The notes under the pieces: model-generated
What the model saw: the letters and a program-made list of their open reading frames with translations, nothing else
Databases searched by the model: none
What the model was told of the DNA's origin: nothing
Program-made: the position numbers and the translations under genes
Assembly: GCF_000008625.1 (NCBI RefSeq)
Contig: NC_000918.1
Coordinates: forward strand, 90,001 to 122,000
Length of the DNA: 32,000 nt
Source of the DNA: Aquifex aeolicus VF5
GTDB lineage: Bacteria; Aquificota; Aquificia; Aquificales; Aquificaceae
Reading direction: 5' to 3'
Shown: positions 26,090-32,000 of the stretch, piece by piece
How positions within the stretch are numbered: the stretch's first letter is position 1
Layout of the letters: the number at the start of each line of letters is the position of its first letter

Positions 26090-27442
26090 TCACAGTATGT
26101 ACCTGCTCAGTTCTTCATCTTTTACGAGGTTTTCAAGTTTAGCCTTTACAAATTTTGCGTCTATTATTATAGTCTGCCCGGCCATTTCCGGAGCGTTGAA
26201 GGATATGTCTTCCAGGAGTTTCTCCATTACGGTGTGGAGTCTACGAGCCCCTATGTTTTCAGTCTTCGTGTTAATTTCCTCCGCAATCCTCGCTATCTCT
26301 TCTATTGCATCATCTGTAAACTCAAGGTAAACGTTTTCGGTTTTGAGGAGTTCTATATACTGCTTCGTGAGTGCGTTTTCTGGTTCTACGAGTATCCTCT
26401 TGAAGTCTTCCTTTGTGAGGGGTTTTAGTTCAACTCTTATGGGAAACCTTCCCTGGAGCTCCGGAATTAGGTCCGAAGGCTTTGCCATGTGAAAAGCTCC
26501 AGCCCCTATGAAGAGTATGTGATCCGTCTTTACAGGTCCGTACTTTGTGTTTACAGTGGTTCCTTCAAGTATTGGTAGGAGATCCCTCTGCACCCCTTCC
26601 CTTGAGACTCCGGGACCTGCTCCGGGTGTCTTTACCGCTATCTTGTCTATCTCATCTATAAAGATTATCCCGAAGTTCTCCGCCCTGTATATGGCTTCCC
26701 TTGCGACTTCCTCCATATCTATGAGCTTTTCCGCCTCTTCCTGCTCAAGTATCTGAAGGGCTTCCTTCACCTTTACCTTTCTCCTCCTCTTTGAGGGAAT
26801 AAGCCCTGAGAGCATCTCCTTTATCTGGTTCTCAAGTTCTTCGAGTCCGGGAGGTCCGGCTATTCCCACCATGGGCACGGTCTTTTCCTTTACCTCAATC
26901 TCAACTATCCTGTCGTCCAGTTCCCCCTTTCTGAGCTTTTGCCTGAGCTCCTCTCTCTTTCCGGCGTCCCTGCTTTCCCTTATTCCGAAGCTCGTGAACT
27001 GGTGGGGTACGAGGTAATCGAGGAGTCTCTCTTCGGCGAGTCTTCTGGCCCTTTCCCTTACCTCTTTCATCTTTTCCTGTTTGACCATCTGGAAGGAGAC
27101 TTCCACGAGTTCTCTTACCATGCTTTCAACATCTCTTCCCACATACCCTATTTCCGTGTACTTCGTTGCCTCTACTTTCACAAAGGGTGCCTTTATGAGG
27201 TTTGCAAGCCTCCTCGCTATTTCCGTTTTTCCCACACCCGTTGGACCTATCATCAGTATGTTTTTCGGGATAACCTCATTCCTCAGGTTTTCTGGGAGTT
27301 TTTGCCTCCTCCAGCGGTTTCTGAGGGCTATGGCAACGGCCTTTTTCGCCTCCTCCTGACCTACTACGTACTTGTTTAGCTCCTCTACTACCCTCTTAGG
27401 TGTTAATTCTTCAAGGAGCTCAGAAAGGGATTTCGTCGTCAT
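26090..27442 (-). CDS. hslU: ATP-dependent protease ATPase subunit HslU
   Basis: 450 aa with [12 protein letters not shown], Walker [18 protein letters not shown] and the I-domain insertion. Confidence 0.95.
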
Positions 27443-27884
27443 CTTTTGACCTCTCGGTGGTTTCTAAAGAAACTTCTTTAACTATCCTGTCAAGGAACGC
27501 GTCAAGGTCCTCGGGGAACTTTTCGAACTTGAGTTCTTCGGGGTAAACCCTTTCCACCACTTCGGGCGGCGGATTTCCGAAACCTATTGCTGGAACGATG
27601 TTCTTCGCTCCCCTTCTGACCGCTTCTCCGATTGCTATCCTGTAAGCTTCCCTCAGGGCCGTTTCAATATCCTTGAACCTGTCCACTTCGTCTCCTAGTT
27701 CGTACAGGGTTATGTCGTAGGCTTCTTCCTTGAACTTTTCCCAGTCTCTGATACCTCTGATGTAGTACTTTCCCTGACTTCCTGTGAGTTCAACGCTAGA
27801 GAGGTCGTCGAGCTTAAATGTAACGATGTAGTAATCTACAAGTTCCCTGTCCGCGTAAACGTCTATAAAGAAGAAAAACTCCAT
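27420..27884 (-). CDS. acidic hypothetical protein ending in an SSB-tip-like DDDEIPF motif
   Basis: 154 aa. The 3' end overlaps the hslU start by 23 nt. The C-terminus reads ...[14 protein letters not shown] recognise no domain. Confidence 0.6.
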
Positions 27885-27937: not shown

Positions 27938-28960
27938 ATGGAACTGGTAAGGGAACTGCTAAGGAAAATAGCTGAATTTGAAAACCTAACTGCGGAAGAA
28001 ATGTACAACTTGATGAAAGAAGTGGCGGAGGGAAGGGCAACGGACGCCCAGATCGGAGCACTCGTAATGGGAACAAAGATGAAGGGGGAAACTCCTGAGG
28101 AAATAGAGGGTGCAGTAAAGCTCTTCAGGGAAAAAGTCGTAAGGGTTCCCGTAAAAGATCCTGAAGAGCTCGTGGACGTAGTAGGAACGGGAGGAGATAA
28201 AAGTTCTACTTTTAACGTTTCCACTGTTACTGGGTTTGTTCTCGCTGGTGCAGGAGTAAAAGTGGCAAAACATGGGAACCGCTCCGTCTCTTCAAAAAGC
28301 GGTAGTGCGGATTTTCTGGAAGCCCTCGGAGCAAAAGTAGAACTTCTCCCTGAAAAGGTGGCGAGACTTATTGAAGAAGTGGGATTCGGATTTATGTTCG
28401 CTCCGCTCTTCCACCCCGCCATGAAAAGGGTCGTTTCTCCGAGAAGGGAGGTGGGAGTCCGATCCATTTTTAATTTGATAGGACCACTTACAAACCCCGC
28501 GGGTGTAAAGAGGTATCTCCTCGGTGTTTTTTCAAAGGAATACGTTGATAAATTCGCAAAAGCCCTTAAAAACCTCGGCGTTAAAAAGGCATTCGTCGTG
28601 CACGGGGAAGGTGGTATTGACGAGGTGAGCGTAGAAGGGGAAACCTACGTTACGGAAGTTTCAGAAGAAGGGATAAGGAGTTTTACCTTTTCTCCTGAAG
28701 AACTCGGTGTAAAGAGAAAGTCTCTGAGTGAAGTTAGGGTAAACTCCCCGGAAGAGAGCGTAAAAGTTGCACTTTCAGTTTTGAGAGGAGAAGAGGGAAC
28801 GCCGAGGGATATGGTTCTCCTGAACGCAAGCTTCGGAATTCTCGTATCTGAAAGGGCAGGGGATATAAAGGAAGCCTTTGAAATGGCTAAGGAGTCCATA
28901 GACAGCGGAAAGGCTCTGGAGGTATTGGAGAAGTATGTGGAACTCTCAAATAAAATCTGA
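27938..28960 (+). CDS. trpD: anthranilate phosphoribosyltransferase
   Basis: 340 aa with VGTGGDKSSTFNVST and KHGNRSVSS motifs. Confidence 0.95.
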   Translation: MELVRELLRKIAEFENLTAEEMYNLMKEVAEGRATDAQIGALVMGTKMKGETPEEIEGAVKLFREKVVRVPVKDPEELVDVVGTGGDKSSTFNVSTVTGFVLAGAGVKVAKHGNRSVSSKSGSADFLEALGAKVELLPEKVARLIEEVGFGFMFAPLFHPAMKRVVSPRREVGVRSIFNLIGPLTNPAGVKRYLLGVFSKEYVDKFAKALKNLGVKKAFVVHGEGGIDEVSVEGETYVTEVSEEGIRSFTFSPEELGVKRKSLSEVRVNSPEESVKVALSVLRGEEGTPRDMVLLNASFGILVSERAGDIKEAFEMAKESIDSGKALEVLEKYVELSNKI

Positions 28961-30162
28961 TGAAGGAAGCCCTTATCCTTTTCTTTCTTATAGTTTCCTA
29001 TAACTACCTCCTTTACTACATAACCGCCAAAGATTTAGCACTAATTCCCCTCTTTCCCGAAAACCCGGAAGAGATCATACTCGTCATAGCCTTCAACTCG
29101 GCCCTTTATATAGGCTGGTTCTTCGGGGAGAGGAGAAAACTCGTAACAATTCTGGGTTATTTATTTTTCTTTCAGACAGTTCTACTCTCTTTAGTGAAGA
29201 AAGATCCCTACACCTTCGTTTCTACCGCTTTTCCCGTGATCTTTACGCTTATGCTAGTTGCTCTATTCAAGAGCCCCTTTGAAAGGGAACTCGAAAGGAT
29301 ACAGAAAGAGAAAGAAGCACTGCTGGAAGAGCTGGAGAAAAACGAAGAGGTAAGACAAAAAGTAGAGGAAGAAAGAGAACGTCTAAAGAAGGAAATATCC
29401 CTCATAAAACTCCAGATAGAACAAAAAGAAAGAGAACTTGAAAGAGCTAAAGAGGCACAGGAGAAACTGGAAGAGGTTGAGAAAAAAGAAAAAGAAGTTA
29501 ATAAACTCAAAGAAAAACTAAGGGAACTCGAGAAAAACTTAAAAAAACAAAAGGAAAAGGAAGAGAAACTCCTAGAATCCAACAGGAAACTATTTCAGTT
29601 GCTTGAACTGCTCGGAAGGAAGGAAGATAAGAGGAGGGGAAGCAAAGAGGTAAGGGAGCTGAGAAAAGAGAGGAAGAAACTGGTCAAGGAAGTTTTAGAG
29701 CTACAGGATCTTCTGGAGATATACTCAAGGGAAAATGAGGAGTTAAAAAAGGAGCTTGAAAAGTTAAAGAGTGAACTAGAAGGGGCCAAAAAGGAAATCG
29801 CTAAACTCTTAACCGAAAAAGAGAATTTATCAAAAGCGGTAAAGAAGAAGGAAGAGATTTACGAGGAAGTCTTAAGAGTTTTCCTTCCGAACGTGAAGTT
29901 TACACCGGAAGCCCTTCAAGAATTCATGAGTTTATCCACTCAGGAGAAGAGGAGGTTTTTGAGGGAATTGGAAAAACTGGAGGAAGGAACGAAGCTCGAG
30001 AGTTTAACAAACGTTCACGGAGTTTACAAGCTCAAGTTCGGAGGTGGAAGGATTTACGTAAGGAAGGAAGGGGACAGGTGGGTAGTTATCGGTATACTGG
30101 ATACGGAGCAGGACAAGGAAAAAGAGCGCTACATAGAGTCTTTGAGGGATAGATTGTATTAA
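28960..30162 (+). CDS. membrane-anchored coiled-coil protein with a C-terminal RelE/ParE-superfamily-like domain
   Basis: 400 aa with about 4 N-terminal TM helices and an about 190-aa K/E-rich coiled coil. The C-terminus VKFTPEALQEFMSLSTQEKRRFLRELEKLEEG...VHGVYKLKFGGGRIYVRKEGDRWVVIGILDTEQ follows the RelE/ParE beta-alpha-alpha-beta3 pattern. The ATG shares one base with the trpD TGA. Confidence 0.65.
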   Translation: MKEALILFFLIVSYNYLLYYITAKDLALIPLFPENPEEIILVIAFNSALYIGWFFGERRKLVTILGYLFFFQTVLLSLVKKDPYTFVSTAFPVIFTLMLVALFKSPFERELERIQKEKEALLEELEKNEEVRQKVEEERERLKKEISLIKLQIEQKERELERAKEAQEKLEEVEKKEKEVNKLKEKLRELEKNLKKQKEKEEKLLESNRKLFQLLELLGRKEDKRRGSKEVRELRKERKKLVKEVLELQDLLEIYSRENEELKKELEKLKSELEGAKKEIAKLLTEKENLSKAVKKKEEIYEEVLRVFLPNVKFTPEALQEFMSLSTQEKRRFLRELEKLEEGTKLESLTNVHGVYKLKFGGGRIYVRKEGDRWVVIGILDTEQDKEKERYIESLRDRLY

Positions 30163-30227
30163 TAGGAGTCTGGTAAAATTGATAAAGGACTTAGCAAAAA
30201 CTTTGATAAAAACAAAGGAGGAAAGAC

Positions 30228-31451
30228 ATGGCAGAATTAAGGGAAACTCTCGAAAGACTCGCATCCTTCAGACCTCAAAATTACTACGTTTCCACCCTTT
30301 ATTTGAGATTAATGCCCGAAGACAGGCAGGACAACAAGTACCTGAGGGTTTACAAGGACCTAGTGAAAAAGAAGGAAAAGGATTTAGAAAACCTGAACCT
30401 GGATAAAGAGGTTCTTGATTCTATAAGGGGGGACATTAAGAACATTCAGGACTTTTTATCCGATCCTAAAAACCTTTACAACTGCAGGGGGATAGCGATA
30501 TTTTCCTGCTCAAAGCTCGGACTGTTTGAGTACGTGAAACTTCCCTACGTTTACAGAAACAGGCTTATGTTCTCACCTGACCCTCTCGTGAGGGAAATAG
30601 CGGCGATAGACGAGGAGTTCGGAAGGGTTGCAGTTCTGCTTCTTGACAGAAAACACATAAGGTACTTCCTCATGGACATAACGGGAATAGAAGAAAAGCT
30701 GGACTTCTTAGAGCCCATGACCACGAGAGCCCACAGGTTCCACAGCGGAGGAGCGCTTCTCAAAGGTGCGGAGGGAACGTTCCAGTACAGAATGCCCGCG
30801 AGGGGTGCAGCGCCAAACGTAGTTCAGCACGGAATGGGTGAGTGGCGTTTCCACATGAGATTAAGGGAAGAGTGGCACAGGATACTCAAACTCGCATCGG
30901 ACGCCCTCTTTGAAGAGTGGAAGAGAATACACTTTGACAAGTTAATAATCGGGGGATTTATAGAAGAAGGTCTGAGGGAAATAGAAAACTTCCTGCACCC
31001 ATACGTTAAAGAAAAACTGGTGGGTTACATAGAGATAACGCCCGAAGAGGCAACTCCCCATCAAGTTTGGGAAAAAGCCCTTGACCTCCTTTGGCAAAAG
31101 GACAGGGAGCAGGAAAAGGAAATAATTAAGGAGCTTGAAGAATTAAAGGGCTGGGGACTCGCGGTTAACGGAACTTCGGAAGTTCTTGAAATGCTAGCCA
31201 TAGGAAACGTAAGAACGCTAATTCTTCCAGAGGACTTTGAAAAACCCGGATACCTCTGTCCGCAGAGTCACCTCGCATTCTTAAAGCCCGAGTGCCCCCT
31301 TCCCGAAGAAAAGCCCATTCCCGTAAGCGACGTGGTTGACGAGGCATTAGAAGAGGCCCTGGATCAAAGGGCAACGATAGAGGTTATAATAGATAAGGAA
31401 CTCCAGAAGAAGGTGGACGGACTTGCGGCGTTCTTAAGGTTTAAGCTATGA
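30228..31451 (+). CDS. bacterial archaeo-eukaryotic release factor 1-like (baeRF1, eRF1/Pelota fold) protein
   Basis: 407 aa with AAGGAGG 8 nt upstream. The C-terminus GLAVNGTSEVLEMLAIGNVRTLILPEDF...ATIEVIIDKELQKKVDGLAAFLRFKL resembles eRF1 domain 3. The central region has FHSGGA where GGQ is expected. Confidence 0.65.
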   Translation: MAELRETLERLASFRPQNYYVSTLYLRLMPEDRQDNKYLRVYKDLVKKKEKDLENLNLDKEVLDSIRGDIKNIQDFLSDPKNLYNCRGIAIFSCSKLGLFEYVKLPYVYRNRLMFSPDPLVREIAAIDEEFGRVAVLLLDRKHIRYFLMDITGIEEKLDFLEPMTTRAHRFHSGGALLKGAEGTFQYRMPARGAAPNVVQHGMGEWRFHMRLREEWHRILKLASDALFEEWKRIHFDKLIIGGFIEEGLREIENFLHPYVKEKLVGYIEITPEEATPHQVWEKALDLLWQKDREQEKEIIKELEELKGWGLAVNGTSEVLEMLAIGNVRTLILPEDFEKPGYLCPQSHLAFLKPECPLPEEKPIPVSDVVDEALEEALDQRATIEVIIDKELQKKVDGLAAFLRFKL

Positions 31452-32000
31452 ACGAGAGGTTAATGATATTCATCGACGGTTCTAATCTGTTTCACGGAAT
31501 ACGGTACTTGAACATAAAGGTGGATTATTCAAAACTCGTGGAGTTCTTGAGGGAGGGGCGCTACCTCGTTCGCGCTTACTTTTACACCGCCGTTCCTCAG
31601 GAAAAGGACATCAAGAAGGGAACGCCCGAGTGGGACAGTCTTCAGAGACAAAAGAGGTTCCTTGACGAACTTTCCTTTATGGGCATAAAAGTGAAGACAG
31701 CTCACTTGAGGAAACTCCCGAGCGGTGAGTACCTGGAAAAGGAAGTTGACATAATGCTTGCCACGGATATGCTCTCCCTTGCTTACAGAAACGCTTACGA
31801 TACGGCTGTTCTCGTTAGCGGGGATAGCGACTTTATACACACCGTGGAAGCGGTGCAGAGTCTGGGAAAGAGGGTGGAAAACGCAACATTCAAGAAAACG
31901 AGTTCCTACAACCTGAGAAAGGTGTGCGACAGGTTCATACTTCTGGACGACCATCTTGACAAGATACTCATGGAGGAGAAGGGTAAAGAAATAGTTCCCG
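31448..32000 (+). CDS. NYN/LabA-like domain protein, predicted RNase (3' end outside the window)
   Basis: It is not in the ORF track because no stop falls within the window. The ATG overlaps the upstream TGA (ATGA). Motifs seen: MIFIDGSNLFHG, KEVDIMLATDM, VLVSGDSDF. Confidence 0.8.
   Translation, partial: MNERLMIFIDGSNLFHGIRYLNIKVDYSKLVEFLREGRYLVRAYFYTAVPQEKDIKKGTPEWDSLQRQKRFLDELSFMGIKVKTAHLRKLPSGEYLEKEVDIMLATDMLSLAYRNAYDTAVLVSGDSDFIHTVEAVQSLGKRVENATFKKTSSYNLRKVCDRFILLDDHLDKILMEEKGKEIVP

Follow-up and report, generated by a model that had tools for sequence, protein, structure and literature searches.

Proteins with the fold of archaeal and eukaryotic release factor 1 (aeRF1) are documented in bacteria. 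Burroughs and Aravind described the baeRF-1 clade in 2019 (PMC6514570), and Balon, represented by AOC03_06830 of P. urativorans and by mycobacterial Msmeg1130 and Rv2629, is a bacterial aeRF1-like ribosome hibernation factor that, together with EF-Tu, occupies the A site of 70S ribosomes, whether vacant or translating, and inhibits translation (PMC10901736). Balon homologues have been reported in about 20% of representative bacteria, and the commonest neighbors of their genes encode RaiA/HPF, stress-response genes also being typical (PMC10901736). Here we analyze aq_199 of Aquifex aeolicus VF5, which encodes a protein of this superfamily and lies within 32,000 nucleotides of contig NC_000918.1 (positions 90,001 to 122,000; the whole stretch is called the window hereafter). 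A preliminary description of this DNA considered an aeRF1 fold in a bacterium noteworthy in itself, which is outdated in view of the studies cited above and of the existing deposit, where the product carries the label 'eukaryotic peptide chain release factor subunit 1' (COG1503) and is annotated as eRF1-like. The protein is already catalogued, and for its closest relatives of solved structure a role in ribosome hibernation has been demonstrated. The novelty is in the system rather than in the protein: an expanded loop at the GGQ site, the hyper-conservation of which seems not to have been described before, an apparently translationally coupled NYN ribonuclease and a predicted membrane-anchored partner with a RelE fold.

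The open reading frame (ORF) and the SGGA motif of the preliminary description were located correctly: aq_199 is an exact ORF on the + strand, and residues 166-183 of its product read TRAHRFHSGGALLKGAEG. The protein is identical in sequence to O66578, WP_010880076.1 and AAC06549.1 of A. aeolicus VF5. A literature search on aq_199/O66578 found no publication, and public records already name its relatives 'baeRF12 domain-containing protein'. aq_199 is clearly a real, conserved gene. Its family comprises 127 cluster representatives, with identities of 50-94%, and occurs at 59 loci in GTDB species genomes; apart from a few records with doubtful labels, these are all from Aquificota. Aquificota-type copies were found in records labelled Acidobacteria bacterium, Pyrobaculum arsenaticum and Acinetobacter baumannii (L048 = RFFP01000016.1, P0092, P0120), and these most likely reflect binning or contamination errors, not horizontal transfer. 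A profile search in a word-indexed protein database returned about 126 Aquificota clusters and no distant relatives; an exhaustive HMMER search recovered 3133 relatives at E<=1e-3.

By Pfam, aq_199 belongs to family 12 of the baeRF-1 clade (baeRF_family12, PF18856; 68.5 bits, cutoff 27.7), with residues 134-283 covering profile positions 2-137 of 138, and it has kept all three domains, which matches the published description of the clade (PMC6514570). It also exceeds the cutoff of baeRF_family10 (42.8 bits, cutoff 27.1), and its C terminus scores just under that of eRF1_3 (25.1 bits, cutoff 25.8). The only NCBIfam models with E<0.01 were the three Balon-type families and aRF1_eRF1, all scoring far under their equivalog cutoffs: AOC03_06830 with 56.4 bits (cutoff 330), MSMEG_1130 with 30.3 bits (cutoff 480), Rv2629 with 17 bits (cutoff 320) and aRF1_eRF1 (TIGR03676) with 40.5 bits (cutoff 234.7).

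An AlphaFold2 model built on 28 family members (mean predicted local distance difference test score, pLDDT, 84.8; predicted template modeling score, pTM, 0.79) has the three-domain aeRF1 fold, with an N domain, an RNase-H-like M domain and a Pelota-type C domain; pLDDT is below 50 only at residues 167-194. Foldseek against the PDB gave 46 matches at E<=1e-3, every one of them a chain of Balon, aRF1, eRF1, Pelota or Dom34. The best match was ribosome-bound Balon Msmeg1130 (8v9j_z; E 8.9e-20, template modeling (TM) scores 0.63/0.70), and the other two Balon proteins were P. urativorans Balon (8rd8_B; E 2.2e-17, TM 0.60/0.66) and Rv2629 (8v9k_z; E 2.1e-15). aRF1 and eRF1 followed at E 1e-17 to 1e-10 (1.4e-17 for aRF1 4af1), and Pelota/Dom34 came last at E 1e-8 to 1e-5. 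In a profile comparison, hhalign aligned a mixed baeRF profile (n=45 sequences) with human eRF1, in a sequence identical to 1dt9_A, at 97.9% probability over 315 columns. The three-domain eRF1 fold, which the preliminary description had presupposed, is thus present in the model, in Foldseek and in hhalign, and its statement that the C terminus resembles eRF1 domain 3 is borne out by the same two comparisons together with the eRF1_3 score.

In the predicted model, Balon is what aq_199 most resembles in shape. Both have the three-domain aeRF1 architecture (TM 0.55-0.70 in the best Foldseek matches), lack GGQ and NIKS, carry at the GGQ site a longer loop that is disordered, in aq_199 by prediction, off the ribosome, and have an insert in the C domain at the site of the archaeal zinc ribbon. 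In contrast, sequence identity is only 11-15%. HMMER aligned the C domain only, so that no residue-level alignment to Balon spanned the HP motif, the lasso loop or the bL27 trap and similarity to these elements was not demonstrable; no invariant His-Pro was found in the N domain of the family alignment. As the equivalog cutoffs of the characterized Balon families are not reached, aq_199 is not an equivalog of any of them.

Fold and domain order are homologous to those of aRF1/eRF1, and both the helix after the loop (RFHMRLREEWHR versus RFARLRMEKRHN in eRF1) and the C domain are recognizable, but the GGQ, NIKS and YxCxxxF motifs are absent. The N domain of the model consists, by DSSP, of a strand, two long helices (residues 30-54 and 60-78) and a sheet, and hhalign aligned it to the eRF1 N domain from residue 63. 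Within it, KLPYVYRNR (residues 104-112) is nearly invariant. The tip equivalent to NIKS (residues 52-63) is variable and contains an indel, NIKS being absent from all 116 family members, and the equivalent of YxCxxxF reads R112-x-M114-x-x-x-D118, the motif having gone. Because GGQ and NIKS are both missing and the TIGR03676 score is too low, aq_199 is not a class I release factor. The host bacterium has RF1/RF2 for termination. Like Pelota/Dom34, aq_199 is a member of the aeRF1 superfamily without the catalytic Gln, yet it is not Pelota, because its N domain is an eRF1-type helical hairpin on a sheet and not an Sm-like barrel; the Foldseek matches to Pelota/Dom34 are also the weaker ones. The small insert in the C domain probably corresponds to the 'degenerate zinc ribbon' that has been described in baeRF-1 families. 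A full zinc ribbon was considered for this site and rejected, as there are only two Cys and a non-invariant His, so that the insert is at best degenerate.

The preliminary description placed SGGA where a GGQ loop would be expected and proposed that the Gly-Gly was retained and the catalytic Gln replaced by Ala. Topologically, the placement holds: SGGA lies between strand 154-156 and helix 196-234, which corresponds to the GGQ loop of eRF1, with approximately 40 residues in aq_199 versus approximately 8 in eRF1. At the level of residues it does not, since SGGA falls in the clade-specific insertion and no profile alignment puts it opposite GGQ. The mixed baeRF profile pairs H-G-R182-G183-G184-Q185 of eRF1 with T-T-R167-A168-H169-R170, with high posterior confidence in this block, and S186-A187-L188-R189-F190 with G204-E205-W206-R207-F208, the residues in between being insert states. 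An Aquificota profile against the family-10-like relatives places Q200-H201-G202-M203 on R-G-G-Q (the GG corresponding to H201-G202) and H172 on eRF1 H180, and against a group with 'GGWxGxEE' it takes a third register, with GG on V198-V199. These differing registers render the residue-level equivalent of GGQ ambiguous, but in none of them is it SGGA. In the exhaustive HMMER search, most distant relatives matched in two pieces, at about 5-173 and 202-406, and the break is the insertion segment (174-201). Only a plain MAFFT alignment places the family 10 Q-G roughly under G175-A176, where the closest outgroups have KG, SD or EG. The HMMER profile against PDB sequences aligned the C domain and part of the M domain only, so that GGQ was not placeable, and the Aquificota-only profile against single eRF1 was too weak (8.9% probability, C domain only). 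By these alignments, SGGA belongs to a clade-specific insertion, 26-33 residues long, and its descent from GGQ cannot be shown.

The part of the proposal that concerns the residues themselves stands. The GGQ string is absent from 116 full-length family members. The Gly-Gly of SGGA is kept in 113 of the 113 full-length members with a parsable motif and, judged from this alignment, is under selection; the next residue is S, A, G, T, D, K, R or V but never Q. The candidate positions for the GGQ Gln in aq_199 are R170, A176 and M203, none of which is Gln. Position 182 is E or Q in the family and position 200 is Q, R or E, so no loop Gln is conserved. A further candidate, 'TRGGK' of group C as a certain GGQ remnant, was dropped, as family 10 (VPGKHDQGGWSQ) suggests K-x-H, not GG, as the common anchor.

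No segment of the protein is better conserved than the expanded loop. Between residues 163 and 208, 17 of 46 positions are invariant (37%), compared with 56 of 407 (14%) in the whole of aq_199, and the 20-residue windows of lowest entropy begin at residues 162-166. The invariant residues are R167, H169, F171, H172, G174, G175, L178, G180, A181, G183, P190, R192, H201, G204, E205, R207 and F208. On this evidence, the loop is not a degenerate remnant. In this respect aq_199 differs from the published Gln-less baeRF-1 families, in which the loops are poorly conserved and of unconstrained length (PMC6514570), and likewise from Balon, the aq_199 loop being strongly conserved, with many His, Arg and Gly residues. 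The lasso loop of Balon wraps A2602 and is ordered only in the presence of P-site tRNA (PMC10901736). A conserved sequence with low pLDDT fits a segment that becomes ordered only on its target, and by analogy the aq_199 loop may parallel the lasso loop.

Relatives with another loop provide a comparison. In a family-10-like subfamily (21 of the 148 relatives analyzed, among them P0210, P0215, P0216 and P0218), the loop has the length of that of eRF1, VPGKHDQGGWSQARFQRH, and aligns gaplessly and confidently to eRF1 LPKKHGRGGQSALRFARL, with a conserved Gln that is shifted by two residues toward the C terminus relative to eRF1 (GGWSQ versus GGQSA). From their sequences, these relatives are candidates that may be active peptidyl-tRNA hydrolases. 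The aq_199 clade has the 26-33-residue insertion in place of this GGWSQ loop and a Glu, E205, at the position of the Gln. For catalysis, the Gln side chain of GGQ is less important than the glycines and the backbone, which would favor a Gln-independent activity, and Gln mutants of bacterial release factors retain substantial activity, so that a Gln-to-Ala change alone is no proof of lost hydrolysis.

The genes around aq_199 set it apart from Balon, in that its neighbors encode an NYN ribonuclease and a membrane protein with a RelE fold and, at the annotated loci examined, not RaiA/HPF or stress proteins. Across the 59 genome loci of the family, an NYN gene lies directly downstream on the same strand in 46 of the 53 loci with enough sequence, and in 42 of these 46 its start overlaps the stop codon of the aq_199 family gene by 1-4 nucleotides. 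A protein of the aq_197 type is encoded directly upstream in 34 of 51 loci. Mean identity to the proteins of the window is 78% for NYN, 63% for aq_199 and 41% for aq_197. The outer flanks vary between genomes, the upstream gene being trpD in A. aeolicus and elsewhere a gene for DJ-1 or MazG, on the opposite strand, and therefore the cassette itself is the conserved unit. P0124, at 44% identity the nearest outgroup that keeps the LKGAEG insertion, also has an overlapping NYN gene. In A. aeolicus the trpD stop overlaps the aq_197 ATG (TGATG, 28958-28962), so that trpD, aq_197, aq_199 and NYN form a packed same-strand run; trpD is probably incidental, because the gene upstream of the cassette differs in other genera. 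In several genomes, the same-strand run is lengthened by a gene for a Ham1p/RdgB-like non-canonical nucleoside triphosphate pyrophosphatase, which overlaps the 3' end of NYN (L001:7814-8416, L020:6805-7425, L060:6820-7425), and L003 has FAD synthetase after NYN instead.

The downstream product resembles NYN/LabA-like nucleases, with a clear domain and an intact acidic active site. It matches Pfam NYN (PF01936) with 121.3 bits against a cutoff of 24.2 and also a LabA-like NYN nuclease model, and none of the catalytic Asp motifs IDGSN, EvDIM and GDSDF varies among 51 orthologs, the sequence being that of a likely active nuclease. Its nearest solved relative, 2qip, is of unknown function. Rae1/YacP of B. 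subtilis, a ribosome-dependent NYN-type endoribonuclease, is a precedent for an NYN-type ribonuclease acting on translating ribosomes; the protein downstream of aq_199 matched PF01936 (LabA-like) only, with no YacP-type Pfam family even at E up to 10. Full-length orthologs of about 198 residues (e.g. L001:7221-7817) end in a conserved Trp/Lys-rich tail, ...GFWAKIKSLWKR, which is amphipathic-helix-like and could be membrane- or partner-binding.

The upstream gene, aq_197, is annotated as hypothetical or, in UniRef, as 'CARD domain-containing', and its named homologs found (51 clusters) are all from Aquificota. Hydropathy analysis gave four hydrophobic helices at the N terminus; the coiled coil that follows is rich in Glu, Lys, Arg and Leu, and YKLKF...GGRIY is conserved in the C-terminal domain. 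The AlphaFold2 model of residues 281-400 (pLDDT 87.7) has the RelE/ParE fold of RelE-family interferases and Cami1, as the top 50 PDB matches of Foldseek are all RelE, ParE, HigB, YoeB, YafQ or the RelE-like CRISPR effector Cami1, with a probability of about 1.0, TM scores up to 0.77 and root-mean-square deviations of 1.9-2.8 A. Pfam matches to ParE_toxin (16.6 bits, cutoff 23; E 0.012, whole profile) and Gp49 (15.2 bits, cutoff 23.9) are under their thresholds. RelE is a cutter of mRNA in the ribosomal A site, with K52, K54, R61, R81 and Y87 as its catalytic residues. A weak hhalign alignment to E. coli RelE (28.7% probability) placed K/R357, K/R359 and the invariant R364 of aq_197 on K52, K54 and R61, and R81 and Y87 have no aligned counterparts. 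In contrast to RelE toxins, the RelE-fold domain of aq_197 is fused to a coiled coil of about 190 residues with four transmembrane helices before it, and the gene has no adjacent antitoxin gene: no small RelB/ParD-like ORF was present between the cassette genes among the ORFs of the window or adjacent to them at annotated loci. In its architecture aq_197 resembles the membrane-tethered hibernation factors YqjD, ElaB and YgaM (bioRxiv 10.1101/2024.08.16.608256), as it would hold a ribosome-binding module at the membrane.

Table 1. Features of the aq_199 locus in the A. aeolicus window (coordinates are window positions; residues are those of the protein concerned)
Feature	Position	Strand	Description
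aq_199 ORF	30228..31451	+	ATG to TGA (31449-31451), 407 residues; baeRF family 12, Balon-like aeRF1-fold protein
Shine-Dalgarno sequence AAGGAGG	30215..30221	+	6 nucleotides before the aq_199 ATG; strong; read from sequence
N domain, eRF1-N-like	30228..30581	+	Residues 1-118; without stop-codon-reading motifs
Expanded 'GGQ-loop' region	30714..30851	+	Residues 163-208; most conserved segment of aq_199
S173-G174-G175-A176 (SGGA)	30744..30755	+	GG invariant; next residue varies, never Q
Clade-specific insertion G174-V199 (GGxxLKGA[E/Q]G...MPxR...PN)	30747..30824	+	26 residues not aligned by hhalign with the family-10-like group
G202-x-G204-E205 before the long helix	30831..30842	+	E205 invariant, on the conserved Gln of family 10 (GGWSQ) by hhalign
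C domain, eRF1_3/Pelota-type	31098..31448	+	Residues 291-407; from eRF1_3 score, hhalign and column counts
C-domain mini-insert GYLCP..SHL..LKPECP	31245-31325	+	Residues 340-366; C344 and C356 invariant; site of the archaeal aRF1 zinc ribbon
NYN-domain ribonuclease gene	31448..32000	+	ATG overlaps the aq_199 TGA (ATGA); cut by the window end, 184 of about 198 residues seen
aq_197	28960..30162	+	400 residues: four transmembrane helices (residues 3-107), coiled coil of about 190 residues, C-terminal RelE/ParE-fold domain
aq_197 RelE/ParE-fold domain	29893-30159	+	Residues about 312-400; from AlphaFold2 and Foldseek

Elsewhere in the window, a 154-residue ORF (27420-27884, - strand) lies directly upstream of hslU and overlaps its start by 23 nucleotides; it has no Pfam or NCBIfam match. 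The position immediately upstream of hslU is one where hslV is often expected. tRNA and Rfam scans of the window found nothing.

For aq_199 alone, the absence of Gln at every candidate position and the loss of NIKS and YxCxxxF make a non-hydrolytic A-site binder plausible. By analogy to its solved relatives, aq_199 probably occupies the ribosomal A site as a tRNA mimic, with EF-Tu as its probable delivery factor, and would neither read stop codons nor carry out canonical peptidyl-tRNA hydrolysis. Its His/Arg/Gly-rich loop would become ordered against 23S rRNA or the CCA end of the P-site tRNA near the peptidyl-transferase center, in the manner of the Balon lasso loop. Non-catalytic insertion into the A site has been proposed for the Gln-less baeRF-1 families by Burroughs and Aravind (PMC6514570), and A-site binding has been demonstrated for Balon (PMC10901736). 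The preliminary description had arrived at A-site binding without canonical hydrolysis from the example of Pelota/Dom34; the behavior is plausible, whereas the Pelota fold itself, given the N domain, does not apply.

For the locus as a whole, the best explanation, to which we give about an even chance, is that aq_199, as a factor of the Balon/Pelota type, is coupled to the cutting of RNA on ribosomes that have stalled or are idle. It would not work alone in Aquificaceae, being apparently coupled in translation to the active-looking NYN endoribonuclease. aq_199 would recognize or hold the ribosome, its partner nucleases would cut RNA, and the trio would thereby handle stalled or idle ribosomes, possibly at the membrane. 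The outcome could be a bacterial analogue of Pelota-linked no-go/non-stop decay or the clearance of mRNA on entry into hibernation. The logic proposed here, an A-site factor linked to endonucleolytic RNA cleavage, is that of Pelota/Dom34, although the parts differ. The eukaryotic Pelota-linked nuclease, Cue2/NONU-1, has an SMR domain and is unrelated to NYN. From gene order, we tentatively suggest that in Aquificaceae aq_199 acts with the NYN endoribonuclease, often together with the membrane-tethered RelE-fold module.

Several observations weigh against this explanation. A deep Aquificota subclade with an intact loop motif has the aq_199 gene without an adjacent NYN or RelE-like gene, and most outgroups (Thermodesulfobacteriota/Dadabacteria, Zixibacteria and metagenome contigs) carry an aq_199-type gene alone; these partners therefore cannot be required for the core function. 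In genomes as compact as those of Aquificota, genes can lie side by side incidentally, as the overlap of trpD with the start of aq_197 illustrates. Competition for a single A site would be expected between a RelE-like domain and an aeRF1-like factor, and the mapping of the RelE active site onto aq_197 comes from the weak hhalign alignment given above. With regard to Balon, aq_199 scores far under all three Balon-type equivalog cutoffs, and no HPF/RaiA or stress genes were seen next to it in the annotated loci examined, the 59 genome loci having been searched only for NYN and the RelE-fold protein.

A simpler reading is that aq_199 is a plain Balon-type hibernation factor that parks in the A site of idle ribosomes under starvation or stress and protects them, the NYN and RelE-type neighbors being unrelated or loosely related. 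Its best structural matches are the three experimentally characterized Balon proteins, the missing GGQ and NIKS together with a long loop disordered in isolation match the description of Balon, and the solitary genes of the deep subclade and outgroups would be as expected. Nevertheless, it leaves unexplained a 1-4-nucleotide overlap with NYN in 42 genomes despite differing outer flanks, an NYN protein more conserved than aq_199 itself, the lack of adjacent RaiA/HPF or stress genes at the annotated loci and the low equivalog scores, and we regard this reading as rather unlikely.

A more elaborate reading extends the coupling of aq_199 to RNA cleavage into a membrane-tethered ribosome-surveillance machine of Aquificota. 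The RelE-fold head, held on its stalk of about 190 residues of coiled coil and anchored by four transmembrane helices, would act on membrane-proximal ribosomes and cut or sense A-site mRNA; aq_199 would then enter the emptied A site, where its hyper-conserved 40-residue loop would engage the peptidyl-transferase center and possibly release the peptide without a Gln, and NYN would destroy the RNA. We consider this version unlikely.

The cassette might instead be a toxin/antitoxin-like or anti-phage module in which the RelE-like protein, NYN or both are toxins directed at the ribosome or at RNA and aq_199 rescues ribosomes cut in the A site or helps toxin delivery. The RelE/ParE-superfamily fold of aq_197, with Cami1 among its matches, points in this direction, as do the matches of NYN to PADLOC HEC-09 (E 8e-18) and to the LabA-like NYN nuclease model, and baeRF-1 pathways have been argued to arise in response to ribosome-targeting effectors (Burroughs and Aravind, PMC6514570). 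However, PADLOC returned only this generic NYN match, which reflects the domain alone, and non-specific coiled-coil matches, and therefore no known defense system is recognized at the cassette. There is also no adjacent small antitoxin ORF, and the cassette, at varied chromosomal positions among housekeeping genes and in a family whose records found are almost all from Aquificota, has the appearance of a core gene retained in the lineage and not of a mobile defense island, so that such a module appears quite unlikely.

That aq_199 is a catalytically active, Gln-independent release or rescue factor using its conserved GG/His/Glu loop is highly improbable: the very strong purifying selection on the loop, with GG, H169, H172, H201 and E205 invariant, the position of E205 on the conserved Gln of family 10 and the reported lack of ArfB in Aquificae (PMC6514570) favor it, but no loop Gln is conserved (some members have R or E in place of Q200, and position 182 is either E or Q), and among known active hydrolases of the aeRF1 type none has a loop that this one does not exceed fivefold in length. 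Moreover, a conserved Gln and a loop of constrained length are reported for the active families (PMC6514570), and the Balon proteins, which are the nearest relatives with solved structures, are kept out of the catalytic center (PMC10901736).

A conserved cassette of aq_199 with two likely RNA-cutting proteins seems not to have been described before. The main text of the baeRF-1 study makes no mention of an association with NYN (PMC6514570), and neither Aquificota nor NYN is named in the text supplements of the Balon paper (PMC10901736). The literature searched contained no report linking a Balon/baeRF-type factor to a nuclease; none of these papers mentions both NYN and Balon, the sole NYN match in a translation-factor paper being Tet-YacP fusions.

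In conclusion, we consider the aq_199 cassette a reasonable experimental lead. As the family comes from thermophiles, its proteins should suit structural work, and the cassette could show what an expanded loop at the GGQ site contacts. With ArfB reported absent from Aquificae (PMC6514570), the cassette may bear on how bacteria without this factor handle ribosomes stalled on damaged mRNA at very high temperature. If the membrane-tethered surveillance machine is real, bacteria would have in it a counterpart of no-go/non-stop decay that uses a release-factor fold of archaeal type. More generally, the pair of A-site factor and NYN ribonuclease could reveal whether the role of bacterial aeRF1-like proteins goes beyond ribosome hibernation.

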